Source: an uncultured virus (IMG/VR IMGVR_UViG_3300042358_000030) (lineage: Duplodnaviria; Heunggongvirae; Uroviricota; Caudoviricetes). Taken from it: a DNA stretch of 64,000 nucleotides. The notes beneath the pieces are model-generated. The model was not told the DNA's origin. It saw nothing but the letters and a program-made list of their open reading frames with translations, and ran no database searches. Where the stretch lies: the IMG/VR virus record IMGVR_UViG_3300042358_000030, positions 1-64,000 of that record. One strand, 5' to 3'. Positions 2,853 to 34,852 of this stretch are shown here, piece after piece. Made by a program: the position numbers and the translations under genes. Position 1 is the first letter of the stretch; each line of letters starts with the position of its first letter.

Positions 2853-2926
2853 TCATAATTTATTTTATTAAATAATGAATTATCTTTTGAAAATAGTATA
2901 TAAACTATTTATTAAAAAAGATTATT

Positions 2927-16700: not shown

Positions 16701-16793
16701 GTTATGGTTTATAGTTCAATTTGTTCTGTAAATGATTCGGGAATCAATTTTAAATTGAATGTTGGAATAAATTTTGAAATTTTATGTAATTAA
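13776..16793 (+). CDS. Baseplate wedge protein (P2 gpI / T4 gp7-like domain)
   Basis: YRNLILNSAYLFKSKGTRKSIETLMALIG matches the gpI-type 'KGT' motif. Confidence 0.7.
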   Translation: MALQKFTCPPQGASGASSFSDDLVGFQLVTGGGLTQGNFEFATSFNEKTNRTFNTGTFSEPISLEGLGLESTFQSRAIFENNFKVYPNFDLSQITNFTQYGSLVKRLSTSVETIISKFPAALEATIMGENYVKGETATNISYNQIDNITSFDLDVSRLRNPFAIDFTINSTRNLALKEIQVSALRDMTVQYAYYSLYYKGIGYDVTAIIPTTSITSGTLNVTVSGDPFPNQTFTFDDLVIRPNDYQVNRVFNEDLDEVENFLLNRNVTPKYTASFNVPREADDGTYFSSQEFITFPLNGSWNLDIVTKAFTNYLIQLNDIGVSLDGYKTNIISRFLVTGAFQEFDTLGQKMEKVLQIYGRSFDETNKFISALAFMNSVHYNPGDDIPSQLLKNLSQTLGWQTNMSPVSTDDFLSSVFGQTNTDKSQYPGVSDATTPDELNYQYYRNLILNSAYLFKSKGTRKSIETLMALIGAPDALVEFNEYIYLADQRINVNQFNSQFAQISGGTYVQELPTLEAGNTYKFRQDTYTGFTTTTVIQDVNITKDEYPMDDLGFPKAPVNTDDYFFEKGSGWFEQTPKHRAPEEVSYTNSVFTGANPNYQTVLTPYTYGQEYFDRFAQFPFMNLGYNLTQTIDNNKSWVDTEVGLRSNLDGGYNARYYTTNDALVLNAKNTDLFLNPAQGLSYDVWVMSREYNFPIPNEGLNYVQPTYCDPNPISNYPMRGGVDWTEINPQPKRKTFFEFAQTFWKNMINVRNRQFSTDGKTMGYPTLQSIYWKYLDAQKLAGVPDGSFNYSKMIEYVDGMGDYWVRLVEQMIPASTIWNTGVKYENSIFHRQKFVWRRQEGCQLIPVPCNPCSMTSNLFTYDCYVQSVQCSIYPWQSNPQLQSFESVLGYLLGNYLTSQGYELNDCLQNTLISTWYVVLSLDDVNIVQYEFFSGIGYLNTGLSSPTTEQWNEALIPALNGLDLYGFEYILNDTNVMVYSSICSVNDSGINFKLNVGINFEILCN

Positions 16794-19700
16794 TGGCTTG
16801 TAGTTTAAGTGTAAATTTAAGTATAACGGGAGATTGTTCAAATACAAACTCAGGGGTTTTTAGTGTAGATATCTACGGTACTGCTCCGGATTATACTATA
16901 CAATGGATAAGTCCCGCTTTAGGGACAATAGCGTTAGGTTCTGGTGTGACAGGATATACCGCAACAACATTATCTGCGGGTACATATACCTTTAATGTTA
17001 TCGATTCTTGTTCATCACCATCTCAAAATGTCTTACCGGTAAATGTTAATATTTCTAGTGGTACATGTGTAAGTATTATAGGTCAACAAAATACTACCTG
17101 TAGTTTTAATAATGGGGCGTTGACGGCTCAAACAAGTAGTTTCTATGGTTCTGCTGATTTTTATTTATATAATACATTAACAGGGTTTGTAACATCTGCT
17201 ACAACGGGTTATAATACATTCACAACCCCACCGGCGTTATCGCCAGGTATTTATTATGTTGTTGCCGATGATGGTGGAGGTTGTACAGGAATGTCAGAAA
17301 CTATTATTATAAAATCGTCATCATCTCTTACTTGGGGTTTTTATGTTGTTGAAGATTCGGGGTGTAATAGCGTTGAATCTGGTAAAATATATGTGACGGG
17401 TTTAACAGGTAACCCACCGTTTACTTATTTATGGTCAAATAACGAAACAACTGACTTTATTACAGGGTTAACAAATGGTACGTATAGTGTAACTATAACC
17501 GATAGTACTAATTGTACGTTATCTCAAAGTGCGACAGTAGGGTTGGTACCGGCATTAGGTGTTGCGGCAATTTTAACGAGCGTACCACCGTCTTGTTTTT
17601 CATCTGATGGTGAAGTTACGGTAACTATATCAGGAGGGACAGGACCATATTATTATTCTGCGTCTACAGGTCAAATTAATGTTTCATTTAGTTCTTCACA
17701 AACTTTTCAAAATATTGGTTCAGGATTATTTTCTATAAAAGTGACTGATGCTGCTTTATGTTCTGTTGTTGGGTCAATATCGGTCTTAACGCCAAATGGG
17801 TTTTCAATTATTACTATTGACACAATTAATGCGGATTGTGGAAATAATGGAAAAATAAAAATGACTCTATTAGGTGGTCAATCTCCTTACACATATACAC
17901 TAGTAAATTCAAATGGAGACACTCAAACACAAGTAACTAATTCTTCTGTTTGGCAATTTACTAATTTGGCGGCTGATACTTACGATTTAACAATATCTGA
18001 TAATGGTGCTTGTGTATATACTAATTCATATACAATAGTATCTACGTCACCTTTTACTTTAAGTGCGAGTACAACAGGTACAACTTGTGATTTACAAAAT
18101 GGTTCAGTGGAGATTAGTATTTCAGGTGGTACACCACCTTATACCGTTAATATTGGTAGTGAATTACAAATAATTCAAACTAGTGCAACGACATTTAATA
18201 ATTTATTTTCAGGTGTGTACGCAGCAGAAATTGATGATGCGGTTCCGGGTTGTGCACAAATTATTAATTTTGTAATTGATACCTCTGAAAATGTTGATTT
18301 TTTATTATCTAGTACTGATGCCAATAATGGTAATGATGGTACGGTATCTGCATATATTACAAATGGTGCACCACCTTTTACTTTATTATGGAGTAATAAT
18401 GTAAATGGGCAGACAGGGTATTATTTAAATAGCTTAAGTGCTGGAACTTATAGTTTACAAGTGACAGATAGTGATGGATGTGTTAAAATTAGACAAGTGA
18501 TAATTGATGGATTTGATTCAATATCATCATTTCAAACGTTTAATATTTGTAATAGTGATTTTGAAAATATTAACGAATTAGTTAAAAAAGGTCCAAAAGA
18601 AATGTTAAATGAGGGTTATTATGATTTAACTTCCGGTTATACTAATTGTTTACTTAATCAAGCAATCTTTAATATTGTTGCAACTATTGGTAGTGTAACA
18701 GAAACTTCAGAATTTTATACAAGTTATGCTTTAAACCATTATCCAACTGATGAAGAATATTTTAACGCTTTAGTTGCTTTATTAGAAAGTTTTGACCAAG
18801 TTGCTCAAGTTAATATTGACCCATTAAATAATGGGATTCAAATAATTGCAAAATGTGAAGAACAATATTTGGTAGCAACAGATGTTAATGTTAATGTGTT
18901 TATTGAGTATAATATCTCATGTCAATATTGTGGTTTAGCTCCTACACCAACACCAACAATAACTATAACACCAACTTTAACTATAACTCCAACATTAACT
19001 GTGACACCAACATTAACTGTTACACCAACATTAACCCCGACGTGGACACCTGGATTACCTCCAACACCAACAATAACTGTAACGCCAACTATAACTCCAA
19101 CATTAACATTAACACCAACCCCTACATCAACCCCAACTGTTACACCAACAATAACTGTTACGCCAACAATAACTGTTACACCAACGGTTACACCAACACC
19201 ATTACCATTGTGGTATTTATACGCATCGTGTATTCTTGGAGAGGATGGTGAGCCATATTATATATTACAACCTATATTAGTATTACCTAATTTATTAATT
19301 GGTGATGGATTTAGTTCTACTGACGTTAGAGGTGATGTATCGTGTTGGAAATTAAAAAATATTTATAATGGAGAACCAACATTACCACCTCAATTAAATG
19401 TTCAGATTTATAATACTAATTATTTCACAACAATTAGTAATACAATTTATTCATCTGAAGATTGTTGTCTAGAATGTGAGAGTGATATTAATATTGAAAA
19501 ACCAAGAAATTTCCTTGTTAGTATTCAAAAAGAAGAATCTCAAGTTACAAATATCCAACCACAGACGTTTTATCTATATGATAGTTCATATAGTTTCCCA
19601 GTAACTGTGTCAAATCCTTTATTGGGTGCTCAATTAGGGTTAGTTAATCAAAATTTAACTGTGACACTCTTATCTAGTGTGGCAAACTCACAATGTGTTT

Positions 19701-19843
19701 TATTATATGTGGATGCTTCACTTTATGCGAGTGAAATCGCCCCAATTACAACTCCCGGTTATTATCAAGTTCAATTTTATAATGTTACTGTTGCAGCAAC
19801 ATCAACATTAGAAATTCATGTAAATTCAGGAGTATGTCAATAA
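16793..19843 (+). CDS. SprB-repeat, Thr/Pro-linker virion surface protein
   Basis: Repeated G.I.V.ISGGT(P/G)PY.Y.W...L.AGTY...VTD..C units; about 90 aa TP tract. Confidence 0.7.
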   Translation: MACSLSVNLSITGDCSNTNSGVFSVDIYGTAPDYTIQWISPALGTIALGSGVTGYTATTLSAGTYTFNVIDSCSSPSQNVLPVNVNISSGTCVSIIGQQNTTCSFNNGALTAQTSSFYGSADFYLYNTLTGFVTSATTGYNTFTTPPALSPGIYYVVADDGGGCTGMSETIIIKSSSSLTWGFYVVEDSGCNSVESGKIYVTGLTGNPPFTYLWSNNETTDFITGLTNGTYSVTITDSTNCTLSQSATVGLVPALGVAAILTSVPPSCFSSDGEVTVTISGGTGPYYYSASTGQINVSFSSSQTFQNIGSGLFSIKVTDAALCSVVGSISVLTPNGFSIITIDTINADCGNNGKIKMTLLGGQSPYTYTLVNSNGDTQTQVTNSSVWQFTNLAADTYDLTISDNGACVYTNSYTIVSTSPFTLSASTTGTTCDLQNGSVEISISGGTPPYTVNIGSELQIIQTSATTFNNLFSGVYAAEIDDAVPGCAQIINFVIDTSENVDFLLSSTDANNGNDGTVSAYITNGAPPFTLLWSNNVNGQTGYYLNSLSAGTYSLQVTDSDGCVKIRQVIIDGFDSISSFQTFNICNSDFENINELVKKGPKEMLNEGYYDLTSGYTNCLLNQAIFNIVATIGSVTETSEFYTSYALNHYPTDEEYFNALVALLESFDQVAQVNIDPLNNGIQIIAKCEEQYLVATDVNVNVFIEYNISCQYCGLAPTPTPTITITPTLTITPTLTVTPTLTVTPTLTPTWTPGLPPTPTITVTPTITPTLTLTPTPTSTPTVTPTITVTPTITVTPTVTPTPLPLWYLYASCILGEDGEPYYILQPILVLPNLLIGDGFSSTDVRGDVSCWKLKNIYNGEPTLPPQLNVQIYNTNYFTTISNTIYSSEDCCLECESDINIEKPRNFLVSIQKEESQVTNIQPQTFYLYDSSYSFPVTVSNPLLGAQLGLVNQNLTVTLLSSVANSQCVLLYVDASLYASEIAPITTPGYYQVQFYNVTVAATSTLEIHVNSGVCQ
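18938..19205 (+). repeat. Coding tandem repeat, about 18-nt / T(L/I/V)TxTP hexapeptide units
   Basis: Recurrent acaccaacattaactgt-type units encoding TPTLTVTPTITV... Confidence 0.9.
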
Positions 19844-19876
19844 TAAAAAACCCCTCCGTTAAGAGGGGTTTTTTAT
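19843..19876. terminator. Bidirectional rho-independent terminator
   Basis: ataaaaaacccctc-cgttaa-gaggggttttttat hairpin between convergent gene blocks. Confidence 0.9.
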
Positions 19877-19877
19877 T

Positions 19878-20477
19878 TTACCATATTTTTTCTTGTTTCA
19901 TATGACCTATAACACAACAATAAGCATCTGTTTGGTCAAAGTTTTCTTTTTTAAGGGTATTGTTTCTTGTGTATAACCAAGTGATTTGAGGTTCTCTTTT
20001 TGCAATTAGGTCCCATATAATCATTTTCTTATCAATGTCTTTAGGAAGACCTCCAAATAGTACGTATTTACCTTTATCATTTAATTGAGTTAATTCCGGA
20101 AAGGCGAACTTACGAGAATTGTATGTTGATATGAAATCAGGTACTACACCTAAAACGTCATATATTTCTTTTGTAATTAAAGTGTTGAATCTTAATAACG
20201 TTTGAACTGTATAAACATTGTTTGAGTTTAATAAAGGTTCCTCGATAATTACTTTAGTGATACCCATATCTTTGTATTCTAAAAGTTTACTTCTGAAAAT
20301 TTCTCCTTTTAGAAGTAACTCTTTTATTTTGTTTTCTTCTTTTGGTTTTGGTACGGGAGATATATGTGTTAATTCGAGTAATTCTCTACTTTGTATATCA
20401 AATAATGCCCAACCAATAGTTTTAGTTGAAACATCAAGTCCTAATACTTTAGGACTTTCTTTAAGTGTTTTTTTCAT
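19878..20477 (-). CDS. ruvC: RuvC-like Holliday junction resolvase
   Basis: VLGLDVSTKTIGWA, VIIEEP, and DQTDAYC acidic RNase H-fold motifs. Confidence 0.75.
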   Translation of the reverse strand: MKKTLKESPKVLGLDVSTKTIGWALFDIQSRELLELTHISPVPKPKEENKIKELLLKGEIFRSKLLEYKDMGITKVIIEEPLLNSNNVYTVQTLLRFNTLITKEIYDVLGVVPDFISTYNSRKFAFPELTQLNDKGKYVLFGGLPKDIDKKMIIWDLIAKREPQITWLYTRNNTLKKENFDQTDAYCCVIGHMKQEKIW

Positions 20478-20483
20478 ATTTTA

Positions 20484-22949
20484 TTAGAAATCAAATTTAA
20501 CTAAAAACTGTTGAATACCTTGTCTTAATACAGGGGATTGTAGCTTTGATACAATCATAAGGTTCATATCAGAATCGTAAAGACCAATTTCTGTAATATA
20601 TGAATTTGTCCCCTTAGTCCATGTAGGGTTTGAGGTTGATTGAAACTCGGCTTGTCCAAGATTTATTTTATATTTCATTTCATAAATGGTTGCTTGGATA
20701 TCGGTTTCTAATGAACCATAGAAATAATATTCATCTCCAAAATTTAATGAAGGTGTTGTTGTTCCGTTAGGTACTAATGGAATAAAATCGTTTAAATCAT
20801 AATCGTCAGCGGCTGCGTAGTTTTCTTCAGTGATTGTAAATGTGGTTCCTGTTAAACTATCTACGGTTAGATATCCATTAATTGTTGTTGCGCTTATCTG
20901 TGAGGTAAAATCAATAATTTTCCATTCAGCTGGGTCAGGTCTACTTGTACCAATAACTTTTTGACAAATAATTTGTAATGTGTCTGCGTAGAACCCTGTT
21001 ATTATATCACATGATGGACATAATGTTGTGGTTGTTGTAGTTGTTGTTGTAGTTGTTGGGATAACAACAGGTTGATTTAAACAAGGGAATTCCGCACCAA
21101 ATCTAATGGAAACGTTTTGTGACGCAACTGAACCACAATCAATGTTAGGTCCTTGAATTTTAGTATAATAATTACAGTGTAATGAATTTGTAAAAATATC
21201 GGTATTACTAAATCTGTAAGTAACGTACATATATTCAGTGTTAGCACTTAAAATACCTTTTACAACAGGTTGATTATTTTCAACCACACAAGTATTTGGT
21301 GTTGTTAATGAAACCTTAGGTGCCGGTAATGTCCAATTACGATTTGACTTGTAAGACATAGCGGCAATAATTTCTTCATCATCAATTACAATAATTTGTG
21401 AATCAGGGAATACTTTACCGATTCTACTTGGTAATCCATTATCATTCGCATTAGTGTCCCATAGTTGGTAATATCTAATACCGGGAGTATTCATATCACT
21501 ATTTTTAGTTGACTCAATGTAATATGGTTGGAATAATAGATATTCATCAAATCCTGGTGGGTCAACCCAAAATGTTTGACCTTTACAACAATTTGGATTT
21601 TTATGCCACATTAACCACGGCAAGTGTAATCTAAAATTGCGGGCTTCTCCTGTTGTATCAGAAGGGTTTGCCGGGTCGTAAGGTTCAAAGGCGAATTTTT
21701 CACCATAAAAGAAATCAATCGCTTGATTAGTATAATGAATAATTGCTATAGATTTTTGTTCACTAGGTTGAACAACTACTGTCTCGTCAAATGAGTTATA
21801 GTAATAAACAACTCCAGTATCTGTTTGACCACTATCGGACATATATCCAAAGTATTCTTTACTACCCATATAAGACGCCGAACCAAAGTAAGGATAACCT
21901 TTATATGTTGAATTATATAAACCGGCAGGGTCTTCAGACCAGGGAATGTTCATATTCCAAATTTTAACATCTGATTCATCTGTACTACATAAAGATTCAA
22001 AATTAATAACATTTTGATTCCAATGTGAGTTAGGTGTGATACTGTCATATAATGTTGTCATGTTTGGCGGATATACTAATACTCTGGCAAAACATCCACT
22101 TGAAAAGTTTGAAAAATCAGGTGTAGGTCTATCTAATGTATAGTTACCGTTACAAATATCTACAATTTTATAAGTTAAGATTGAATAACAACTACTCATT
22201 GACATCTCACAATTTGGTGGTGTTGGGGTAGGTACAGGTGTTGTAGAACAACTTATTGTTGGGGTTGGTGTTGGAGTTGGTGTTTCACATCCTGTATATG
22301 TTGGTGTTGGAGTTGGTGTTGGTGTATTAGTGACTTGGTAAGTTGATGTTGGGGTATAGGTTGGGGTAGGTGTTAATCCTGGTTCACAATAACAATTGTA
22401 TTCTCCTTGACCATCATAATATATTGTAACAAAGTCACCAATAGATGGTAATCTTACAATATTTGAATTACACCCTGAATATACTAATTGAATAACACTA
22501 CCACCCGTTAATGTAGACATATCTACGAGATAGTTAGAATTAATTGTATATTGGCTATTTGTTAATGCGCTCCATGTGAAAGTTGTTGCGGTTGTGTCTC
22601 CGGTGAAAAATCCTCTCATTGCGGCTCTATTATATACCGATTGAGGGATAGACGCCATGTATGGGATTCCATAAGTGTTACCTGTTATTCCATCAATATA
22701 GTATGGGTATTTAACGTTTTGTTTGTTATATTCAGGTGCTCCTGTCGAATTTTGAGCGTTAAAGGCTGGTTCAAGAATTTTTGTGGTAAATTGGTTGTAT
22801 GACGTTCCTGTTAATGTATTGTAAGAAACCTCACTATCTCCTACTTGAAAATAAGAGATATTAAAACTACCCTGTGATAATTTTTGTCTTCCGGTATCAG
22901 TTAGTCTTGTACTAAGTAAACCTTGTGTATTTTTTAATATGTATCCCAT
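20484..22949 (-). CDS. Tail-collar/fibre-attachment-like virion protein with Thr/Pro tracts
   Basis: N-terminal LTDTGRQKL and C-terminal ITEIGLYD..NLMIVSKL..P resemble the tail-collar fibre domain, split by a long insert. Confidence 0.6.
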   Translation of the reverse strand: MGYILKNTQGLLSTRLTDTGRQKLSQGSFNISYFQVGDSEVSYNTLTGTSYNQFTTKILEPAFNAQNSTGAPEYNKQNVKYPYYIDGITGNTYGIPYMASIPQSVYNRAAMRGFFTGDTTATTFTWSALTNSQYTINSNYLVDMSTLTGGSVIQLVYSGCNSNIVRLPSIGDFVTIYYDGQGEYNCYCEPGLTPTPTYTPTSTYQVTNTPTPTPTPTYTGCETPTPTPTPTISCSTTPVPTPTPPNCEMSMSSCYSILTYKIVDICNGNYTLDRPTPDFSNFSSGCFARVLVYPPNMTTLYDSITPNSHWNQNVINFESLCSTDESDVKIWNMNIPWSEDPAGLYNSTYKGYPYFGSASYMGSKEYFGYMSDSGQTDTGVVYYYNSFDETVVVQPSEQKSIAIIHYTNQAIDFFYGEKFAFEPYDPANPSDTTGEARNFRLHLPWLMWHKNPNCCKGQTFWVDPPGFDEYLLFQPYYIESTKNSDMNTPGIRYYQLWDTNANDNGLPSRIGKVFPDSQIIVIDDEEIIAAMSYKSNRNWTLPAPKVSLTTPNTCVVENNQPVVKGILSANTEYMYVTYRFSNTDIFTNSLHCNYYTKIQGPNIDCGSVASQNVSIRFGAEFPCLNQPVVIPTTTTTTTTTTTLCPSCDIITGFYADTLQIICQKVIGTSRPDPAEWKIIDFTSQISATTINGYLTVDSLTGTTFTITEENYAAADDYDLNDFIPLVPNGTTTPSLNFGDEYYFYGSLETDIQATIYEMKYKINLGQAEFQSTSNPTWTKGTNSYITEIGLYDSDMNLMIVSKLQSPVLRQGIQQFLVKFDF
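22213..22383 (-). repeat. Coding Thr/Pro repeat tract
   Basis: Encodes PGLTPTPTYTPTST...TPTPTPTPT...PTPTPP. Confidence 0.85.
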
Positions 22950-22974
22950 GTGATATAAATATTCTTATTTTTTT

Positions 22975-24000
22975 TTATTTTTGATTAACGTTAATAATTT
23001 CTACTACACAACATCCACAACCACTTATAGTTGCGTTGTATATATTATATAAGTCCTCACTTAATGTATACGTACAAGGTGTTAATGGTCCATTGTTAGT
23101 TATTGTTGTAACCGTGTTAATAACAATTGAATCTGAATTTGTAAAGGTTAATGAGTTCCAAGTTTCGGTATAGAAATCTAAATACTTTATTAAGTTTTGA
23201 CATCCTTGAATTGTATTAAAATTTGCATCTGATGTTACAGTACCGTTTGATGTGGTTAGTATTAAATTATCATTTTTATATAAGGCACTACTAGTAACCA
23301 AACTTGCAGTTATACCACTTGGAGAATAGTAAAATTTGTTATTGTGTGATATGTTAAAATTGATTACAGTACCACTTGGTAATTCAGGTGATACACTAAC
23401 CGTTGTTGTATATTGATTAGTCAACGTTGTATTATTATTAACCGGATTTGTTGATGTTGTTGTTAATTTTACACTATAAACTGTTGGTGGTGTAGGTTCA
23501 TTTAATGTTACATTATCACTATTAGTGTTTCCACTTACATCAATAACTTTAACGCTATAAATTCCTGAACATAATTGACTAAACATTGGTGAATTATAAT
23601 ACGTAACACCATTATCAATTGAATATTGATATGGTGGGTAACCACCTGAAACAGTTACCATTAAATTACCATCACATGAACATATTGGTTGATTAACACT
23701 ATAGGTTAATGAATTAATACCTAATGGATTACAAACACCTTCGTTAGCATAAACAGTTCCGTTAGCACCTAATACATACCAAGAGTTAAGAGGGGGTACA
23801 GAAGATGGTAAAGAAGAAAACACCAAATAAGTTAGATTACCACCATTCAATTTCCATCTACTTAATGAGGTGTCCCAATTAATTGAATATGTGTAATCAT
23901 CAGATACCCATTGATTATATCCATTAACATCTAATCCATTTGGGTTAAAATGAATTTGTAAGTTATTAATACTAATATTTAGACAAAAATTATATTCCAT
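22975..24000 (-). CDS. SprB-repeat-containing virion protein
   Basis: DGNLMVTVSGGYPPYQYSIDNG...LCSGIYSVKVID. Confidence 0.6.
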   Translation of the reverse strand: MEYNFCLNISINNLQIHFNPNGLDVNGYNQWVSDDYTYSINWDTSLSRWKLNGGNLTYLVFSSLPSSVPPLNSWYVLGANGTVYANEGVCNPLGINSLTYSVNQPICSCDGNLMVTVSGGYPPYQYSIDNGVTYYNSPMFSQLCSGIYSVKVIDVSGNTNSDNVTLNEPTPPTVYSVKLTTTSTNPVNNNTTLTNQYTTTVSVSPELPSGTVINFNISHNNKFYYSPSGITASLVTSSALYKNDNLILTTSNGTVTSDANFNTIQGCQNLIKYLDFYTETWNSLTFTNSDSIVINTVTTITNNGPLTPCTYTLSEDLYNIYNATISGCGCCVVEIINVNQK

Positions 24001-24001
24001 T

Positions 24002-26245
24002 TTATGATATTGTTATTCCCACTCCTTTTGTTGTTTGAAGTGTGTTGTATGATGAAGTGTTTGTGTATTTAGGTGATGATGTGCCTTTTATTTTTAATAA
24101 TTTACTACTAACCCAAGTTGAATTAGCATAACTTGTTAATAATTTATCAACATTAGTACTATTAAAGCCGCTTCCCACTATTTCAATTATTCTTAAATCT
24201 GTAAAAATTCTTGTACTATTTGAGAATACTGATATTGTGTTGTTACCGTATATATATAAATATTGGATATTTAAATGAACTAATGATAAATCACCTGAAA
24301 TGACGTTATTACCTTGTATTCTAACATTTTTTGAATTAGAAGGTAAATCTTGAATATTACCATAAATTGTGTTGTTACCGTATATAGCTAGTTGGTTATA
24401 GTTATAAGTACTACCTATACTACCAATATTACCAGTTAATGTATTGTTACCCTTTAACTCAAAAATCGCTCCTAGTTTTAAATTTAATGAACTAATATTA
24501 CCAGTAATATTATTATTTCCATAAATTTGTAAAGTTGATAATATTGAATAGTTTAATGTGTTAATATTACCATAAAGAGTATTAGTACCTTCAACATAAA
24601 TGTGTGATAAACTTGTTGGTAATGTTGATATATCACCAGTAACAGTATTTCCACCAGCCAATCTTATATCCATAACACTATTTGATAATCCGCCTAAATC
24701 ACCAAATATTGTGTTATTACCATATATATTTATGGTATCTAAATTAGGTGTCGACATTAATGATATATCACCGGTAATAGTGTTTGAACCAGCAATCATA
24801 ATTTTTTCAAGTGATGGGCAAGGAATATTATTTATATTACCTGTTATGGTATTTATACCACCTAAAATAATAGTTTTTAATGTTGTTGGTAAATTAGAAA
24901 CATTTCCTGAAATAGTATTTAATTGGTTTGGATAATTATTAAAGAACAAATTAATATGAAAATATTGTATATTAGGTGGTAAATTTGCAATATTACCTGA
25001 ACAATTAGACCACCGTGAAATTAATGATAATAATGTTGTCGGTAATAAACTTATATCACCTGATAAAAAATAATTTAGTCCATTACCGTCACCCATTCCA
25101 ACTAACCCATCTAAAAGATTTAATTGAGAAGTTTCAATTTCTAAATATCTAACACTATTCTCATTTATTTGAGGGTTAACATTTTTAGGTATAATTTGGG
25201 TTATAGATGTTAAATTTGATGTTTGAATTAATATATTTCCAGTATAAGGTGTTGAATATATGTGTGATATATAATTAATACCTGAAGGGTAATTATCTGT
25301 ATTACCATCACCCCAAACAATTCTAAATGGCAGTGATGCGTCAATTCTAAATTCAAAACCACTAACAGGGGCAAAACTATTCAAACTTCTTGCAATCATT
25401 GTGAATGTTTCGTTGTATGATGGTACTTCTGGTGTTATTGTTATTGTTGGTGTTGGGGTAGGTGTTGGTGTTTTGGTTAATGTAGGTGTTATAGTCAATG
25501 TAGGTGTTATAGTTTGGGTAATTGTTGGTGTTGGTGGTATTCCTGATGTTAATGTAGGTGTTAATGTAGGTGTAACCGTAGGTGTTGTAGTTAATGTAGG
25601 TGTTAGTGTTGGAGTTCTAGTTAATGTTGGTGTAACCGTTAGTGTTGGTGTTGGTGTTAGTGTTGGGGTTTTGGTTAATGTAGGTGTTGGTGTTGCGGTT
25701 GGTCCTGTTAATACGCATATTGTATTGGCGGTAAAATCACCATAATAATCAACAATAGTTGCTGGATATGAACCCGATTGTAAATCCATGATAGCAGGTG
25801 AAATACTACCATCACCCCAAGTAACTGTATATGGAGGTGTTCCTCCTGTTATAGATATAGATGCTCTACCATCACGACTACCTGCAGTTGAAGGATTAAT
25901 AACATCACATTCAACAGTCATTGGAAATAATGTAATTACATCACATTCATTGGATTGAATATAACTAATTGCTGGCTGTGGAGGAGGAGGAGGAAAACAA
26001 CCATAAGCGTTATCCAAACAATCTTGACAATCGTTATATAATGTTGAGATAGTTTTATTCCCTGCGTAAATTAACGACCCTGATGGGATTGGTCCTGATA
26101 TTAAATAAGCGCACCCACTAAATGAAAGGGTTTCAATAGAATAAACTTCCCCTAAAATAGGTAATATTAATGTAATGTCATTTACTCCGAAATAATTGTC
26201 GGATTCGTTAAATTTGACACAACATGTTTGAAAATAATATATCAT
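24002..26245 (-). CDS. Virion/receptor-binding protein: SprB-like unit, TP linker, PKD-like domain and LRR-like solenoid
   Basis: SITGGTPPYTVTWGDG; about 90 aa TP tract; IVWGDG...HIY; many IxGxNTIxGxIxxL repeats. Confidence 0.65.
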   Translation of the reverse strand: MIYYFQTCCVKFNESDNYFGVNDITLILPILGEVYSIETLSFSGCAYLISGPIPSGSLIYAGNKTISTLYNDCQDCLDNAYGCFPPPPPQPAISYIQSNECDVITLFPMTVECDVINPSTAGSRDGRASISITGGTPPYTVTWGDGSISPAIMDLQSGSYPATIVDYYGDFTANTICVLTGPTATPTPTLTKTPTLTPTPTLTVTPTLTRTPTLTPTLTTTPTVTPTLTPTLTSGIPPTPTITQTITPTLTITPTLTKTPTPTPTPTITITPEVPSYNETFTMIARSLNSFAPVSGFEFRIDASLPFRIVWGDGNTDNYPSGINYISHIYSTPYTGNILIQTSNLTSITQIIPKNVNPQINENSVRYLEIETSQLNLLDGLVGMGDGNGLNYFLSGDISLLPTTLLSLISRWSNCSGNIANLPPNIQYFHINLFFNNYPNQLNTISGNVSNLPTTLKTIILGGINTITGNINNIPCPSLEKIMIAGSNTITGDISLMSTPNLDTINIYGNNTIFGDLGGLSNSVMDIRLAGGNTVTGDISTLPTSLSHIYVEGTNTLYGNINTLNYSILSTLQIYGNNNITGNISSLNLKLGAIFELKGNNTLTGNIGSIGSTYNYNQLAIYGNNTIYGNIQDLPSNSKNVRIQGNNVISGDLSLVHLNIQYLYIYGNNTISVFSNSTRIFTDLRIIEIVGSGFNSTNVDKLLTSYANSTWVSSKLLKIKGTSSPKYTNTSSYNTLQTTKGVGITIS
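25425..25705 (-). repeat. Coding tandem Thr/Pro repeat (TPTLTxTP)
   Basis: Recurrent gttaatgtaggtgt units on the + strand. Confidence 0.9.
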
Positions 26246-26265
26246 TATAATTTGTTTCTGTTATA

Positions 26266-27246
26266 CTATAAATAATCCTTTATTTGTTTTTTCACCAAAG
26301 ATTTCATAACTTCTACATATTTTTTTGTTGAACTCTGAGAACTGACATAATCGAAAAAATTAATATTCTCTTTTAATTTGTCTAATGGGTTAAGATTAAT
26401 AAAATCTCCTTTATAAAATTTATCTTGTTTTTGATTATCTGTTACTCCTGCCATGTGAAGAATAGGTTTATCTTCATATATTTTTATTGAATCTGTTGCC
26501 CATGAAAAATCAAATTCAGGGGTTATTTTTGTCTCAATTCCATGTAACCACAAATTCCATAATAGTGACCACATCTCGGCGGTCCAAAATTGAATTTCGC
26601 CTGGACTAATTGGAAATCTTTTTTGATAGTCTAACATTTGGTCATACAGTGGAACGCAATCTGCGTATATTTTTTCCCATAATAACCAATCGGTGTTTTT
26701 AATTAAGTATTGACCACCTCCCGAATTTTCTTGATTACATTCAATACACTCAACTGAAACGCCAACAACATCGGTCATTTCTTCTAATAATTGACCTTTA
26801 CCTGATGTTGGGTGAGCATTTTCATAACGTTCACAACAATCCATAATATATCTATAACCAATATATCCTATTGTGTCGGATAAATATGTAATATCATCAT
26901 TTAATAAACTATCAAAATTTGGTAATTTTCTGAATATAATGTCAGAGTCATGTAAGAAGAAACATTTACCATGTTCAGGAAAATCTTTTAACCATTTTGA
27001 AATTAAAAAGGGTTTAACTGTTGGGATGTAATGTTTTTGAGGTCTATTATCGATATAATAATGTACGTTAACTCCGGAATCTTTTAATTTTAAAGATTCT
27101 TCAGTTGGTTTACCATCTTCATTTATTATTCCAAGTAATACGTGGATTTGATTTGGAGGAACACCATGTTCAATAAAGTTGTGTATATACACCATTATTT
27201 GCCAATGGAAATAAGGTACATCAGGTTGTGCTGTAACAAAAATCAT
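26266..27246 (-). CDS. GT-A fold glycosyltransferase resembling SGT1/HPAT protein O-glycosyltransferases
   Basis: YFHWQ, KP..I..WL, FLHDSDIIF (DxD), WTAEMW, and ILHMAG motifs. Confidence 0.7.
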   Translation of the reverse strand: MIFVTAQPDVPYFHWQIMVYIHNFIEHGVPPNQIHVLLGIINEDGKPTEESLKLKDSGVNVHYYIDNRPQKHYIPTVKPFLISKWLKDFPEHGKCFFLHDSDIIFRKLPNFDSLLNDDITYLSDTIGYIGYRYIMDCCERYENAHPTSGKGQLLEEMTDVVGVSVECIECNQENSGGGQYLIKNTDWLLWEKIYADCVPLYDQMLDYQKRFPISPGEIQFWTAEMWSLLWNLWLHGIETKITPEFDFSWATDSIKIYEDKPILHMAGVTDNQKQDKFYKGDFINLNPLDKLKENINFFDYVSSQSSTKKYVEVMKSLVKKQIKDYL

Positions 27247-27324
27247 ATTATATAAAACGTTTTTAATTAAATATAAATGACAATCAAATGTAATAAATGG
27301 TAAAGATGATGATATTTATATAAT

Positions 27325-27495
27325 ATGAAACTGATTAGAACAATATCGAATTTGGTAACTGAATCTAAAAAAATTTACGAGGACGCATGTGAAAAAGGTG
27401 TCAACGAAAAAGAATTAGATAGATTAGAAAAAAACTACAATGAATCTTTAAAACTTTTAAGGATATATGAGGGTTTAGGTAAAAAAACGGAATAA
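27325..27495 (+). CDS. Small hypothetical protein, 56 aa (MKLIRTISNLVTESKK...), not in the ORF track
   Basis: Translated by hand; preceded by TATTTATA at 27313-27320. Confidence 0.6.
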   Translation: MKLIRTISNLVTESKKIYEDACEKGVNEKELDRLEKNYNESLKLLRIYEGLGKKTE

Positions 27496-27497
27496 TT

Positions 27498-30400
27498 TTA
27501 TATTCCGTAAACTATTTCTACACCTTCAATATGGACAGTCCATCTTAAAGTTTCACCAACAGCTCCTGTGACTTGTATATCTAAAGCATCGTTAGTATTG
27601 TCAGCACTAATTGCAACGTCATAAGATGCGTTATCTTCCACATCAGTTCCAATAACTGATACCGGACTCGCACCAATTAAAGAAGTTGCACCACCTACAT
27701 TTTTAATTGCGACTTTTCTTATATAGTGAGCTCCTGCAGAACCATCTGATTTAATACCACCAATATTTATTGTAACAAACATTGCAGTTCCTGCAATTAC
27801 GGATATACGTTGACTTGCCCCATCTAAAAATATGTTGACAGCACTTCCACTTGTTGTTTTATTTCTACCTACTAAATCAATTTGTTGTGACGCACCTCTT
27901 GAACCAGCGCCAGCCCAAGTACCTGAAGCAAATGACCTTTGTCCAAAACGAGGTGCACATCCATAGGCTCCACCAAGAATTGATGAATAACAACCTGTGA
28001 CAGTGTTTGCACACCCACCTCCAATAAAAGAATGTTCAGCACATGAAATATTACTGGCTCCACCAACTATTGCCGAAGAACCGCTAAATACGACATTTCC
28101 ATCACCACCACCAATAAAAGAAGCTGTATCACATACACCATTTGTATTTCCACCAACAATTACAGATAAGAATGATGAACCTGATAACGCAGGTGTTCCA
28201 ATGCAGTTGAATTGACCACCACCAATAAAGTTAGATTCACCGTGAGTTCTATTTGTCCATCCACCTACAATTGTTGAGTATCCATACGCTGTTTGACAAA
28301 TTATACAGTTTTTATAACCACCTCCTATAAATGAAAACCTTACACAAGTTGTATTTTGACAACCACCACCAATTGTTGACATGTTGCTGCAAATTATATT
28401 TCCATTTCCTCCGCCAATTGTTGAACAGTTCCCCGAAATTATATTAAGTGAACCACCAACTATTGATGAACCACACCCTGCGACACTGTGTTGACTACCT
28501 CCCCCAACAAATGAACAAGCACCAATTGAGCAGTTATTATAACCACCTCCAATTGTTGAACAACCACCTGACGCAGTGTTTTTAAAACCTCCACCAATTG
28601 TTGCAACCCAATTACATGTTTTGTTCTGAAAACCTCCGCTAATTGTTGAGTTACCACTATATGCAATGTTACAACCACCACCACCGATAAAGGAATCACT
28701 AGCGGCAGCACAAATAATATTTGAAAGACCACCGGTAATTGTTGAATTAGGCGACCAAATTGTGTTAGTAATACCACCACCTATAGTTGAACCGGATGTA
28801 AAGATTATATTATTACATCCTCCACCAATTGTTGATTTAATTCCTTGTACGCTATTAAATTGACCCCCACCAATAAATGACACACCACCGGAAACGGTAT
28901 TTCCAGAACCACCACCAATAAATGAATAATTACCTGATGATATATTGCACTTACCACCGGTAAGTGTTGAATGATAATTACATGTGGTGTTGAATGAACC
29001 AGCTCCAATAAAGGAACAATGTCCAATAGAGCAATTACGACCACCACCAACGATTGATGATTGACACCCAATAGATTTGTTATCATATCCTCCGGTTATC
29101 GATGATTGATTACCACTTGATATATTACAACGACCACCACCAATAACTCCTCCATTTCCTGAGACTTTATTATAACCTCCTCCACCTATAAACCCTGTAA
29201 TTCCGGATACGGTATTTGCGTAACCACCACCAATAAAACTATTTTGGAATCCTGGTAAACTATCTGTTAAATTTCTAATTATTGGAGCGGACGATGTGAA
29301 TGGATTTACAAATATTGTTGACCCACTAACATCCAAATAAGTATATCCGCCCGAATACGTAGATGCAGTTATAACAACATTTCTTGAACAACTAAAATCC
29401 CATGTTAGTAAAAGGTCGTTAACATTAAATGACGATGTCTGATTACCATATAAAGTTATTGAACAATTATTTGCGTAATATGAGTTTGTTACTGATGAAT
29501 TACCAATAAAGTTTAACGCACCACCACCAATAATTGAGTGGTCACCACATATTACATTAACTTGTCCTCCACCAATTATACCAAATGGTACAGAAATTCT
29601 ATTATTATTACCACTTACAAGACCACTACCATAAGTGTTTGAACCTAAACAGTTAAGTGCTCCCCCTAAGATTGCTGCTCTAACACCATATGTTTTATTA
29701 TAGAATCCACCGACAATAACAGAATCTTCACCAATACCAGTTGTACCTGATATTTGATTGCCTCTACCACCTCCAATAAACCCGTATGATTGACATAATT
29801 TATTATTCACACCACCGGCAATTACTGACCTAAATGGATTCAATACATTACTATTGATGCTATTACCGGAACCACCAACTATTGAAGAATCTGTTCCGCA
29901 TACACAATTATTTCTACCACCAGCAATTGTTGAATATGTACAAGTTATTTTATTATTAAATCCTCCACCAATAACAGAATGGCTGAGAACATTACAATTA
30001 TTTTGACCTCCTGATATTGTGGAATAACTACCTAAAGATTTATTACATCTACCTCCACCAACAAATGATTGAAAACATGATATATTATTTGTACCACCAC
30101 CAATTGTTGAGAAACTATTTATTGCTTGGTTTCCACAACCACCCGCAATAGTTGATGTATTTCCTGTTGCAACATTTAAAATTCCCCCACCAATTGTTGA
30201 ACAACCAAAGGAAGTTATATTTTCCTGTCCACCGGCAATTGTTGAACTATTACCGTAAGATTTATTTTTTTGACCACCACCAATCGTGTTAAAGTTAAGG
30301 TATGGTGTTATAATATTTGTGTAACCACCACCAATTGTGTTACCACCGGTGCAAGTATAACCAACATAAGTATTTGTATTTATGGTGTTACAATTTCCTC

Positions 30401-31388
30401 CCCCAATAACATCGCCTAAACAAAAATAATTATTATTATAATTTTGAGATTGACATATTTTGTTAAAATGACCACCACTAACTGTTGAACAATTACCGTT
30501 TGATAAATTACTATTTCCACCACCAATTGTTGAGTAACATCCTGAACTTGTATTAAAACCACCCCCTCCAATTGTGGAACCACAATTTGTAGAACAGTTG
30601 TTACTCCCTCCTCCAATTGTAGATGTACCGGAAAGACTAAAATTACTAGCACCTCCGGCAATTGTACTATAATTACCTAATGACTGATTACTCATCCCAC
30701 CTGCGACTGTAGAACCAATACCGTACGCTTTATTACTAATTAATGAATATGAACCTCCCCCTCCTCCAATTGTAGAAAATTGACCACAAGCAATATTATA
30801 TTGCCCCCCACCAACTGTTGATGATATACTACTCGCTGTGTTAACACTACCACCACCAATTGTTGAATAAAAACCGGAAGAAGTGTTAGATTGACCACCA
30901 CTAACTACTGATGCTTTACCGGAAGCGGTGTTATATGAGCCTCCCCCAACTGTTGAACGACAATAAGAAGAAAAATTACCACTACCACCCCCAATTGTTG
31001 ATGTATTACCAGAGGCAATGTTACATTTACCACCACCAATTGTTGAAATATAATCAGAAGAGGTATTGTATTTACCGCCACCAATAAATGAGTTGTAACC
31101 TGATGATATATTACAAAATCCCCCAACTACGGTTGAAAAGTATGTTGTCCCTGAATTATTTTGTCCACCTAAAACAGCTGAATAATTGCCTGATGCAATA
31201 TTCCCTACTGATTTTCTAACTGACGAATTAATTCCGGTTCCTGTTATGATTACGGCATTATCTAATGAACCAATCGTAGCTTTAAAGGATGAACCTTGAG
31301 GGCTATCTGTCGTATCACCTGTTAATACAATGTGAACTAATGCGTCTGGTGATATGTAAGGTGGAAAATTTCTATCTGTTAATCTCAT
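27498..31388 (-). CDS. Long Gly-rich repeat tail fibre / beta-roll adhesin-like protein
   Basis: Dozens of about 14-aa S(T/F)IGGGxxNxxxG repeats with non-repetitive N- and C-terminal domains. Confidence 0.7.
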   Translation of the reverse strand: MRLTDRNFPPYISPDALVHIVLTGDTTDSPQGSSFKATIGSLDNAVIITGTGINSSVRKSVGNIASGNYSAVLGGQNNSGTTYFSTVVGGFCNISSGYNSFIGGGKYNTSSDYISTIGGGKCNIASGNTSTIGGGSGNFSSYCRSTVGGGSYNTASGKASVVSGGQSNTSSGFYSTIGGGSVNTASSISSTVGGGQYNIACGQFSTIGGGGGSYSLISNKAYGIGSTVAGGMSNQSLGNYSTIAGGASNFSLSGTSTIGGGSNNCSTNCGSTIGGGGFNTSSGCYSTIGGGNSNLSNGNCSTVSGGHFNKICQSQNYNNNYFCLGDVIGGGNCNTINTNTYVGYTCTGGNTIGGGYTNIITPYLNFNTIGGGQKNKSYGNSSTIAGGQENITSFGCSTIGGGILNVATGNTSTIAGGCGNQAINSFSTIGGGTNNISCFQSFVGGGRCNKSLGSYSTISGGQNNCNVLSHSVIGGGFNNKITCTYSTIAGGRNNCVCGTDSSIVGGSGNSINSNVLNPFRSVIAGGVNNKLCQSYGFIGGGRGNQISGTTGIGEDSVIVGGFYNKTYGVRAAILGGALNCLGSNTYGSGLVSGNNNRISVPFGIIGGGQVNVICGDHSIIGGGALNFIGNSSVTNSYYANNCSITLYGNQTSSFNVNDLLLTWDFSCSRNVVITASTYSGGYTYLDVSGSTIFVNPFTSSAPIIRNLTDSLPGFQNSFIGGGYANTVSGITGFIGGGGYNKVSGNGGVIGGGRCNISSGNQSSITGGYDNKSIGCQSSIVGGGRNCSIGHCSFIGAGSFNTTCNYHSTLTGGKCNISSGNYSFIGGGSGNTVSGGVSFIGGGQFNSVQGIKSTIGGGCNNIIFTSGSTIGGGITNTIWSPNSTITGGLSNIICAAASDSFIGGGGCNIAYSGNSTISGGFQNKTCNWVATIGGGFKNTASGGCSTIGGGYNNCSIGACSFVGGGSQHSVAGCGSSIVGGSLNIISGNCSTIGGGNGNIICSNMSTIGGGCQNTTCVRFSFIGGGYKNCIICQTAYGYSTIVGGWTNRTHGESNFIGGGQFNCIGTPALSGSSFLSVIVGGNTNGVCDTASFIGGGDGNVVFSGSSAIVGGASNISCAEHSFIGGGCANTVTGCYSSILGGAYGCAPRFGQRSFASGTWAGAGSRGASQQIDLVGRNKTTSGSAVNIFLDGASQRISVIAGTAMFVTINIGGIKSDGSAGAHYIRKVAIKNVGGATSLIGASPVSVIGTDVEDNASYDVAISADNTNDALDIQVTGAVGETLRWTVHIEGVEIVYGI

Positions 31389-31419
31389 TGGTTTTTTGTT
31401 TTATAATATAAATAGTTTG

Positions 31420-31725
31420 TTATTGGAAATCGTATATATCAAAATCCATAAATTCAAAATATTGATAATCTTGGAATTGTTTTGGTACCGGAGGTAATAA
31501 GTTACAAAGTACAACTTCAAATCTTTCACAACCATCTCCATAAATAACTTTAATACCGACAGCGGCTACACTATTAAATTGAGATGGTAATACAATAATA
31601 TTGTCAGGGGGTACAGATGTTACGATTGTGGCGATTAACGCACATTGATTTCCATAGACATCACAAGCGTAAATTGTATATGGAAAATTTGAACCTGTGA
31701 TTGACTGTATGTTAATAGCTGTCAT
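31420..31725 (-). CDS. Small virion-associated protein (paralog of 34854..35069)
   Basis: I.I.SITG..PY.IY.CD...IKVI...C pattern shared with 34854..35069. Confidence 0.6.
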   Translation of the reverse strand: MTAINIQSITGSNFPYTIYACDVYGNQCALIATIVTSVPPDNIIVLPSQFNSVAAVGIKVIYGDGCERFEVVLCNLLPPVPKQFQDYQYFEFMDFDIYDFQ

Positions 31726-31728
31726 ATC

Positions 31729-33939
31729 TTAAAAAGTATATGATGGGTTTGCGTACGTTAATGAACCATTAACCACCGTTGCGACGATATCACTGAATAT
31801 ACCACTAGGTGCTCCGTTAACTATAGGTGTTGCTAAAATTCTAAAAGACTTAAAATTATTTTGGTCGGTCAATTCAACTTTATAATTATATATGTATACA
31901 AATTGTACTTGGGTATATGATACCCCAATAGATGTGAAATTATTACAAGTTACTGCGGATAACGAAGGTATTCGAGTATAGGGAGAACTACTACCTGAAA
32001 AAGGTACTGTTGCATTAAGATAATTGTTAAGATAATATACTCCTTGAATAGTACTAGCACTGTTAGTGACAGGAGGAAACTCAACAAAATATTTTGTTAC
32101 TCCAAAAGGTACAACGTATTTAGAACCGGTGTTAGAAGTAAAATCCTCAACATTTGTTGCACCTGTTGAAGAATTATTAACTGTTGTTACAACACTATTA
32201 ATATTTAATTGACAATTTATGTCACAAGGGTCAAACGGTGCGATATCGTCAGATATTGTTGGCATTGTTATGTTTAAAGTATAATTTCCTCCGGTAGTTC
32301 CTGTTGTTACTATACTAGAATAATGTAAATAATACGTTAAAAGAGACGTTCCATCACCACAATTAGTATTTGGAGTTAAGTTTTTTGGTATAAATAATTG
32401 AAAATATCTATAATAATTTGGGTCGGCAGAATTAAATGGTGTTCCTGAATAAGGTAATGTCAAATCATAAGACGATTTATAATCAACTAAATCACTTAAA
32501 CTACTAAATTCCATTTTAATTACACCTTGTCCTGATGGTCCGGTATTTTCTTTTTTAAAAGATATTATGTTTGTGTTAGGTATAGGTGAACAAATTGGAG
32601 GAACATTTATACCAAAAAGCATACTGCAGGATGTTGCGTCCCAATCCAAACTACCTGTTGTTCTATTTCTTAATCCCGTGATATCATCTGTATATGTATT
32701 AGTATTAAAACTTGTTGTTGAGAGTGGATTTGCGTCTGTTTTTTGATATTTGTAAATATCGCTATTTATTATTGAACTTTCGGTACATCCGGATACATCA
32801 AATTTGACCTCAATTGAAGAACACGAACCCGTAATACCTGTAATAGATGATGATTTTATTTTATATGGTGTATTTAAATAATCATATAAACATAAATCAC
32901 AATCAAAACTATTCATACAAGTAAAATAAAAATCCCAATTTGTTTGTGAGTTAAATTGGTTTGGAATTACTTCTAAAATTAGATAATCGCCAACATTTCT
33001 TGATAATGAGGTTAATGAGGTTACTTTTGAAAAATAATCTGTGGTGCTAGCGGATTTTGGAAATGTCAAATACTCCGCATTGGAAATTGAAATGTTTCCC
33101 CCAATTTCCCAATATTCTAAAATAATTGGGTCGGAATAATCTGAACCATAGAATGTTATTTTAAGAAAATCCGGAATTGCATCCCCTTTAAATTTCCACG
33201 AAAAATAATTAGTTGTAATGTCTAAATCAAAAGTTGATTGTAATGTTAATGGAGTGGTACCTGCGGCTGCTGCAGAAAAATTAACCCTATGAGTATAATC
33301 GTTCGGTAACGGTACTGTTCCATTATCACAAGTAAAAGGTTGGACATTAACTGTTGTCGCGTTAAAACATTCTAATTCTGCTTGAATATAACCTGTTCCA
33401 CCTGTTTGAGAATAATTAAGACCATTTAGTTTTACCTTATCAATAACTGGAATATATGTTCCGGCTTCAACCATTGGTGAGTTAATTCCTACTAATGGAT
33501 GTGTTAAATTGTATGGTACAAAGGAGCTTCCATAACCTGATGTAAATGCAAGATTAGTTGACGAATTTGGACCATACCAAAATATTCTATAATCGGTGAT
33601 GTCATTTTCACAACTACCTGTTAATTCTCCGGCAACAATTATCCCAACATTATTAGTTTGATATGAATCAAATGATAAATCGCAAGTTGTACATAAATCA
33701 TTAGATAGTAATTCAATAGTTGCACAACATGTGGTTGTGATATCAATAATTCTAATTGTATTAGTCCCATTAGGTACATTACCCATAACATATGGGCATA
33801 ACGGACCAAATAAACTAGTATAACTTACGTTAGTTTGGAAAGGAGTGGTATATCCATCAACATTTGAATATATGTTAAATGTCCCTCCTAAAGCGACAGT
33901 TCCTGAATTTGTTAAACAAGTTGATGCTGAAAATGGCAT
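31729..33939 (-). CDS. Putative virion structural protein (Thr/Ser/Cys-rich)
   Basis: 736 aa ORF in the minus-strand structural block. Confidence 0.55.
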   Translation of the reverse strand: MPFSASTCLTNSGTVALGGTFNIYSNVDGYTTPFQTNVSYTSLFGPLCPYVMGNVPNGTNTIRIIDITTTCCATIELLSNDLCTTCDLSFDSYQTNNVGIIVAGELTGSCENDITDYRIFWYGPNSSTNLAFTSGYGSSFVPYNLTHPLVGINSPMVEAGTYIPVIDKVKLNGLNYSQTGGTGYIQAELECFNATTVNVQPFTCDNGTVPLPNDYTHRVNFSAAAAGTTPLTLQSTFDLDITTNYFSWKFKGDAIPDFLKITFYGSDYSDPIILEYWEIGGNISISNAEYLTFPKSASTTDYFSKVTSLTSLSRNVGDYLILEVIPNQFNSQTNWDFYFTCMNSFDCDLCLYDYLNTPYKIKSSSITGITGSCSSIEVKFDVSGCTESSIINSDIYKYQKTDANPLSTTSFNTNTYTDDITGLRNRTTGSLDWDATSCSMLFGINVPPICSPIPNTNIISFKKENTGPSGQGVIKMEFSSLSDLVDYKSSYDLTLPYSGTPFNSADPNYYRYFQLFIPKNLTPNTNCGDGTSLLTYYLHYSSIVTTGTTGGNYTLNITMPTISDDIAPFDPCDINCQLNINSVVTTVNNSSTGATNVEDFTSNTGSKYVVPFGVTKYFVEFPPVTNSASTIQGVYYLNNYLNATVPFSGSSSPYTRIPSLSAVTCNNFTSIGVSYTQVQFVYIYNYKVELTDQNNFKSFRILATPIVNGAPSGIFSDIVATVVNGSLTYANPSYTF

Positions 33940-33949
33940 ATTTTAATTT

Positions 33950-34852
33950 TTAAGTTTTATTATATAAGTAACCTTCCATTCCACAGTCAGTACATTCTGA
34001 TGGGAGTATGGTTTCTGTTGGTGTCGGTGTTGGTGTTGGTGTAGGGACTATTGATTGAGAACATAATATACAATCACCATCATCTAAAAATCCGTATGGT
34101 CCTAATAATAGTGTAATATCGTCTTTACCAATAGTGTTATTATTAACTCCAATATATCCAACACACATAACAATTCCATTAACATTGGCTTGATAAACGT
34201 GAAACTTTTCAATTGGAATATTACCTGGAGTTACAATTTGATTTGTTGTGTAATACATCATACCATTATAACAACTTTGGAATTGATAACTATACGGACA
34301 TACAATACTATCATCTATTGTGTTGAAAGTTACCGCTCCCTCAAAAGTACAAGTACGAGCAACAGGTGGAGTAGGTGTAGGTGTTAATGTTGGTGTTGGT
34401 GTGGGAGTATTTGGGATATTTTGAATTGTTGCACTTATAACAACATTACATGGGTTGGTAGGGGTTGGAGTTGGCGTTGAGGTTGGAGTGGATGTGGGTG
34501 TAGGTGTGGGAGTTGGTGTGTCAACATCACAATCAAAAATTGCTGAAAAATTTAAACTAGAACAATATGCTGTTGGGGTTGGGGTCGGAGTGGGACATGT
34601 TCCGCTAGAGAAATAAACATCGTCTAAATCCGGACATGGGTTAAAACAAGGTGATTGACCTGATAATAAACAAACTCCATCTAAAACGGTTGATAAACAC
34701 CATTGGGTTGACCCGGTATTATAATAGATAAATAAACTATTAGTTTGACCGGTCCAATATAGTTGAGAATTATGTGTTCCGGCACTAAAGTATACATCGT
34801 CGAATGTTGGGTAACCAGTGTTTGAAAGGCAATATGTAGAACTACAAGGCAT
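33950..34852 (-). CDS. Cys-rich virion protein with four PT tracts
   Basis: Four separate (PT)n runs separating Cys-rich segments. Confidence 0.6.
   Translation of the reverse strand: MPCSSTYCLSNTGYPTFDDVYFSAGTHNSQLYWTGQTNSLFIYYNTGSTQWCLSTVLDGVCLLSGQSPCFNPCPDLDDVYFSSGTCPTPTPTPTAYCSSLNFSAIFDCDVDTPTPTPTPTSTPTSTPTPTPTNPCNVVISATIQNIPNTPTPTPTLTPTPTPPVARTCTFEGAVTFNTIDDSIVCPYSYQFQSCYNGMMYYTTNQIVTPGNIPIEKFHVYQANVNGIVMCVGYIGVNNNTIGKDDITLLLGPYGFLDDGDCILCSQSIVPTPTPTPTPTETILPSECTDCGMEGYLYNKT

Follow-up and report, generated by a model that had tools for sequence, protein, structure and literature searches.

The glycosyltransferase gene and its surroundings

The DNA analysed here (the window) is a stretch of 64,000 nucleotides (nt) from the uncultured Caudoviricetes record IMGVR_UViG_3300042358_000030. 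It carries, at 26266..27246 on the minus strand, a gene for a predicted soluble glycosyltransferase (GT), and this phage enzyme probably O-glycosylates poly-threonine (poly-Thr) or Thr/serine (Thr/Ser) tags on the phage's own virion proteins. The GT family co-occurs tightly with Thr-rich tracts in virion proteins, and the reading that fits best is therefore that the phage O-glycosylates its own proteins. The contig from which the window is taken is 72.5 kb long and the virus record is rated 25% complete. Since record G005, whose GT protein is identical to that of the window, is rated complete at 318 kb, the source of the window is a jumbo phage. The SprB repeats in window proteins presumably hint at a Bacteroidota host. 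The features needed for the argument are the following, with lengths in amino acids (aa) and genes referred to below by their first coordinate:

26266..27246, minus strand: predicted soluble GT-A glycosyltransferase of 326 aa, PHROG 4417; DxD motif (D100/D102) at nt 26941-26952, HxxG motif (H264/G267) at nt 26446-26457
24002..26245, minus strand: 747-aa SprB/leucine-rich repeat (LRR)-like protein directly downstream of the GT gene; 93-aa Thr/proline (Thr/Pro, TP) tract at aa 181-273, nt 25427-25705, with 44 Thr and 22 Pro
20484..22949, minus strand: 821-aa protein conserved in the lineage, with a (TP) tract and a poly-Thr run; probably associated with the baseplate or a fibre
21024..21056, minus strand: run of 11 Thr (Thr11) at aa 632-642 in the product of gene 20484, with mixed codons; the strongest acceptor candidate of the window
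22215..22373, minus strand: (TP)-type tract, aa 193-245 (53 aa) of gene 20484; tracts of this type are kept where the GT is absent
16793..19843, plus strand: 1016-aa SprB-repeat protein; 88-aa Thr/Pro tract at nt 18941-19204, with 41 Thr and 22 Pro
33950..34852, minus strand: 300-aa Cys-rich protein with four short (TP)n tracts, nt 34010-34597; homologues keep the tracts without the GT

A preliminary description of this DNA had listed four motifs in the GT gene, and all are present in its product: YFHWQ at aa 12, KP..I..WL (as KPFLISKWL) at aa 78, HDSD at aa 99 and WTAEMW at aa 221; HMAG follows at aa 264. It had also placed the gene directly upstream of, and co-oriented with, a gene carrying a TP tract of about 90 aa, which holds with a gap of 20 bp between the end of the GT gene and gene 24002 and a tract of 93 aa. 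The long Thr/Pro tracts that it attributed to genes 16793, 20484, 24002 and 33950 were found in all four (as four short tracts in 33950) and were absent from the other 45 of the 49 open reading frames scanned. The Thr11 run of gene 20484 is the sole run of at least five Thr in the 72.5-kb contig. Matches for the four tract genes were limited to SprB repeats, a weak LRR and, over the tracts, phrog_15511, a family of unknown function. A suspected resemblance of the ends of the gene 20484 product to tail-collar fibre domains was not confirmed (best match PHROG 1162, tail fibre, E 0.032), and its core, folded without an alignment, gave no usable model (predicted local distance difference test score, pLDDT, of 32). 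When the phage collection was searched with genes 20484 and 12862, no cultured phage related to the jumbo lineage was found.

Sequence, fold and family of the enzyme

The 326-aa protein belongs to PHROG 4417 over its full length (E 5.2e-69, residues 1-317 over profile positions 1-291 of 293). This family is annotated as hypothetical only, with function unknown; its members include the lactococcal 'prophage pi2 protein 34', bIL285 Orf45 and phiFL1A gp51. Members in 77 phage records are 25-37% identical to the window protein. What sets the window subgroup apart within PHROG 4417 is an insert that it has in common with giant-virus homologues, for example in Yasminevirus (P0130, P0125-P0134), and because these close homologues with the same insert include a Yasminevirus protein, the GT family reaches giant viruses.

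The structure model (pLDDT 97.8) is a single Rossmann-like GT-A domain starting at residue 2, and its closest folds are glycogenin/GT8-like enzymes (LgtC, Skp1 galactosyltransferase, WbbM) and also GT24 UGGT, at 6-12% identity. The DxD and HxxG motifs are invariant, and D100, D102 and H264 are unchanged in all 66 family sequences. The protein has no membrane anchor, its highest 19-residue hydropathy being 0.68. While the fold is similar to that of GT8-like enzymes, no PDB chain was matched by sequence, either with the 326-aa protein or with the 66-row profile; the Glyco_transf_8 profile did not match the window protein and was not among the families listed for A1 or A5. The model supports the protein as a candidate glycosyltransferase of GT-A fold.

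The preliminary description had likened the enzyme to the plant enzymes SGT1 and HPAT. The GT-A-fold candidate survives from that comparison, but the plant link proved remote. The window protein does not match the Pfam HPAT profile (PF23452), two of the 66 family members match it at E 0.09 or worse, and one member, in a Halolactibacillus prophage fragment (1 of 44 genomes), lies at the profile's cut-off (24.5 versus 23.9 bits, E 2.1e-5). Of the 30 named neighbours in the Atlas, 19 are clusters with PF23452 in about 10% of their members. Plant GT95 or GT96 enzymes do not appear by name among the PDB structural matches listed, and a search for SGT1-like relatives among proteins of 794-2265 aa gave one Sphingobacterium protein only, which is weak evidence. 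Remote kinship of the family to plant HPAT is likely. Membership of the window protein itself in GT95 or GT96 is not supported, as it has neither a PF23452 match nor a type II anchor. GT95 is predicted to be GT-A-like (PMC8476585), and plant arabinosyltransferases are Golgi type II proteins, with HPAT as the initiating enzyme family (PMC8012813). HPAT (GT95) and SGT1 (GT96) initiate protein O-glycosylation, which is the role proposed for the phage enzyme. The plant arabinosyltransferases differ from it in their membrane anchor, which the phage enzyme lacks. The acceptor differs too, being hydroxyproline or Ser-Hyp4 in plants and, as proposed here, Thr runs in phages.

DUF7164 (PF23741) was considered as a close relative and rejected: the window's own genome record gave no match to it (nor to PF23452), hhalign of A1 against one DUF7164 protein returned a probability of 1.4%, and the resemblance to the GT family was seen in the Atlas only. 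Chromosomal DUF7164 genes of Bacillales genomes (L572:368-2520 in G021; L578 in G407) have a neighbour with a long Thr/Ser tract in two of five loci, and another of the five has a neighbour with a collagen-like repeat. At a guess, these loci may form a cellular counterpart of the phage system, perhaps acting on proteins of the spore surface.

Co-occurrence with poly-Thr runs in siphophages

Homologues of the GT gene in phiFL1A, 1706, phiCTP1 and iLp84 follow a tail or head-region gene with a Thr run at the end of its product. The bIL285 homologue follows the capsid gene, with the Thr run on the tail tube, and in Chryseobacterium phage MA9V-3 the gene upstream of the homologue has an internal Thr run. 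Of 51 GTDB loci, 47 were analysed, four being omitted since the gene was cut or lay at a contig edge. A Thr tract was present in the gene directly upstream of the GT gene in 44 of the 47 and within 8 kb in 46. The pairing of GT and Thr tract extends over phages of Lactococcus, Lacticaseibacillus, Enterococcus, Bacillaceae, Clostridium, Staphylococcus and Chryseobacterium.

Control loci were chosen by a structural gene, not by the GT, and both the GT and the Thr tail were scored afterwards. Among bIL285-type tail tube loci (best 80 of 133), 14 had both and 66 had neither. The iLp84-type capsid (74 loci) gave 36 with both, 37 with neither (two with the capsid gene cut) and one with the tail only, in which the contig ends at the capsid gene; capsid proteins of this type that are 97-99% identical differ in their tail in step with the presence of the GT. 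For the Bacillaceae-type tail tube (best 80 of 128, a few loci having short flanks), both were present in 18 and neither in 62, and a tree of this protein requires 11 changes for each trait. Pooled over 234 siphophage loci, a Thr run of at least five was found in 68 of 68 GT-plus loci versus 5 of 166 GT-minus loci (Fisher p 1e-53, computed ignoring relatedness). GT-minus prophages L343, L345 and L422 retain a Thr tail on one structural protein and are probably mosaics left by recombination. Codons in 132 distinct Thr runs are mixed as if at random, and DNA slippage was rejected as the source of the runs.

Co-occurrence in the jumbo lineage

Loci of the jumbo lineage were retrieved by gene 20484; 107 were left after the removal of nine duplicates, and scoring covered the 94 whose sequence extends for 6 kb or more on the GT side. 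The GT and a Thr run were found together in 83, the GT only in three (two of them cut off just downstream) and neither in eight, and no locus had the run only. Tracts of (TP)3 or longer were present in all 94, including the eight GT-minus loci. Two records rated complete, G002 and G450, lack the GT gene genome-wide, and G002 has no run of five Thr codons anywhere. Genome-wide counts of ACNx5 are frame-blind, with a reversed control that is often equally high, and were used only to compare genomes and to find genes.

The tail sheath, of which G005 encodes a homologue, shows the same behaviour at a distance of about 50 kb from the GT gene. At aa ~285-320 the sheath carries a Thr/Ser insert in the GT-plus genomes G005, G006, G007 and G455, a (PT)n insert in GT-minus G002, and no such insert in GT-minus G003 (half complete) and G450. 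Because both the locus counts and the sheath inserts follow GT status, the enzyme tracks poly-Thr/Ser while the (TP)n linkers are independent of it: the feature that tracks the GT gene is the poly-Thr/Ser run, not (TP)n. The expectation in the preliminary description that the GT would co-occur with TP-linker genes in relatives therefore failed, as the linkers are kept in eight of eight GT-minus loci and in two complete GT-minus genomes. Its wider proposal, that the phage O-glycosylates its own mucin-like linkers, keeps its core in that the family co-occurs with Thr-rich virion tracts, but not its acceptor, given that (T/P)n linkers persist without the GT.

More divergent homologues

In Herelleviridae the GT gene lies beside small Thr-tailed proteins. 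The most divergent enzymes, in LP65 and SAC12B (25-29% identity), accompany tails of different repeats without runs of five Thr; the annotation of LP65 gp051 is that of a structural protein detected by mass spectrometry. In VPE25 (L582:6720-6890) the stop codon of the capsid gene is overlapped by a long poly-Thr reading frame, as is that of the tail-tube gene, at CCC-TAA, in Staphylococcus phage SA2 (L585:6680-6930), an arrangement that suggests programmed frameshift extensions made up almost wholly of Thr/Ser. On a plasmid of Rhizosphaericola mali (L586:12001-14841) the homologue is fused to a galactosyltransferase-like domain, and the next gene appears by eye to be lanthionine-synthetase-like; family member P0213 is fused to radical SAM/SPASM. 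Together these features hint at peptide-modifying clusters.

Proposed mechanism and alternatives

Poly-Thr runs are thus gained and lost jointly with the GT gene on capsid, tail-tube, adaptor and sheath proteins. In the mechanism that we propose, a metal-dependent GT-A enzyme would take a sugar from a host nucleotide-sugar and place single sugars on the Thr/Ser hydroxyls of unstructured runs in capsid, tail, sheath and fibre-like proteins. The host cytoplasm would be the site of the reaction, at or before the stage of assembly, and the chemistry, judging from the GT8-like neighbours, would be retaining. The product would be short bottle-brush segments carrying glycans; these would stiffen exposed termini and linkers, protect them and mask the surface of the particle. 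A stiffening or protective effect on exposed linkers is suggested by the GT-minus sheath, which swaps the insert for (PT)n, and (PT)n linkers appear to be the sugar-independent alternative in the jumbo lineage. For the C-terminal tags, surface masking is plausible as well. The prime acceptor in the window is likely to be the Thr11 run of gene 20484, joined in G005 by the Thr/Ser insert of the sheath. Thr-dense Thr/Pro tracts may be modified too, although they are independent of the enzyme, and those of genes 24002 and 16793 are possible secondary acceptors.

Several observations weigh against this interpretation. The tree of the Bacillaceae-type tail tube has 11 independent pairs when every branch is counted but just 3 where branch support is good (sign test p 0.25), and about two changes account for the GT-minus loci of the jumbo lineage. 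A Thr run is present despite the lack of the GT in the 5 of 166 siphophage loci and in complete G450, where Thr7 ends a 187-aa protein. Conversely, GT-plus L194 has just a short Thr motif, GT-plus L614 has no Thr run of five within 10 kb, and the Bacteroidota plasmid homologue has none within its 16-kb locus. The structural matches are remote (about 5-14% identity, template modelling (TM) score about 0.4-0.46) and some are glycan-extending enzymes. Finally, the preliminary description had set the GT in a structural block among virion proteins; a baseplate wedge gene at 45-1883 agrees with such a block, but we infer the virion location of the tract proteins in the window.

The extending enzymes raise the question of whether priming of the Thr runs is done by a host enzyme, leaving only extension or capping to the phage enzyme. 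The top structural neighbours include the extenders LgtC, GlyE, Skp1 galactosyltransferase and XXYLT1, and some Bacillota have cytoplasmic O-GlcNAc systems for Ser/Thr-rich proteins. Such an arrangement would require a shared priming enzyme across the hosts of all seven phage groups in which the pairing holds, from Lactococcus to Chryseobacterium, and the sole named family reached by any member is HPAT, which PMC8012813 describes as initiating; we regard the arrangement as unlikely. It is a little less likely that the enzyme is of extensin type with (T/P)n mucin-like linkers as its main acceptors. The 93-aa Thr/Pro tract in the gene directly downstream, the long Thr-rich tracts in many GT-plus loci and the remote HPAT signal fit that idea, but (TP)3+ tracts occur in 94 of 94 loci, eight GT-minus ones among them, the sheath has (PT)n in GT-minus G002 and Thr/Ser runs in GT-plus genomes, and acceptor candidates in Gram-positive systems are mostly Pro-poor poly-Thr.

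The same Thr runs might also receive a sugar-phosphate, polyol-phosphate or nucleotidyl group, which seems improbable. We give very little weight to the last alternative, in which the substrate of the enzyme is phage DNA or the host surface and the Thr tails are merely linked to it in one cassette. Many phage glycosyltransferases do target DNA or serotype (PMC12619734), and in small phages the tail often adjoins the GT gene. Yet the tails encoded by other genes (capsid, adaptor, tail tube), at distances of up to ~3 kb, vary with the GT, as does the sheath insert ~50 kb distant, no DNA-modifying GT is among the 50 fold matches listed, and the enzyme has no membrane anchor. Against these alternatives, we remain reasonably confident that the GT family and the poly-Thr tag form a genuine candidate system that is well supported and whose enzyme family lacks annotation.

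Other features of the window and its complete relative

A RuvC-like resolvase gene (19878-20477, minus strand) lies directly after gene 20484 inside the structural block and is found in 69 of 80 related loci. The 1296-aa product of 27498-31388 (minus strand) consists of Gly-rich 14-residue repeats and is probably a beta-roll fibre; because homologues occur in only 11 of the 80 related loci, it is a variable module. The window also carries a sigma-70-like factor (43944-44744, plus strand) and, judged by eye, a DnaJ-like gene (52385-53302, plus strand). Aquatic 'moraphages' encode DnaJ and four core glycosyltransferases (PMC12619734).

In G005, a GT9-like gene (L564:308-1183, Pfam E 3.4e-5) adjoins a very long GTS-repeat protein at 1218-5999, possibly as a second glycosylation pair. 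A 281-aa protein with three Thr runs (L563:2151-5001) adjoins two unannotated genes that are GT-like by eye, have no significant Pfam or PHROG match and could extend the glycan.

Relation to known virion glycosylation and implications

Virion glycosylation at capsid and tail-tube C-termini is described for the mycobacteriophages Che8 (gp110), Corndog (gp38) and Myrna (PMC12363180, PMC12619734), and that system resembles the present one in a phage-encoded GT proposed for these termini and in a shielding role. It differs in that the acceptor here is apparently a dedicated poly-Thr tag that would be gained and lost with one gene, and in its hosts, which are mycobacterial there, whereas the family here is found in phages of Bacillota, in one Chryseobacterium phage and in jumbo phages that are uncultured. 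At the sequence level, no mycobacteriophage is among the 77 phage records matching the GT family, even at E 10. The literature searched, which left most subscription journals and supplements outside its coverage, held no description of this GT family or of poly-Thr virion tags and no report of tailed-phage virion glycosylation beyond mycobacteriophages.

On balance, and more tentatively than for its parts, we favour a broader picture in which a portable module, consisting of a soluble initiating O-glycosyltransferase and poly-Thr tags, sugar-coats the virions of phages of both Bacillota and Bacteroidota, whose genomes range from 35 kb in dairy siphophages to 300 kb in jumbo phages. Its enzyme family would be a bacterial and viral sister of plant GT95/GT96 that reaches giant viruses, and loss of the enzyme would lead to tags being dropped or replaced by self-stiffening (PT)n linkers. 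Virion glycosylation would then extend to dairy, Enterococcus, Staphylococcus, Bacillaceae and aquatic jumbo phages, and poly-Thr tails would serve as its readable sequence signature. The near-identical natural pairs with versus without the module make the system directly testable. Glycans on the particle could influence how stable it is, how it adsorbs and how antibodies recognise it. For glyco-engineering, a soluble enzyme able to glycosylate a short Thr tag inside the bacterial cytoplasm would be a useful tool, and it would also be a tractable model of the plant GT95/GT96 enzymes, its remote relatives.

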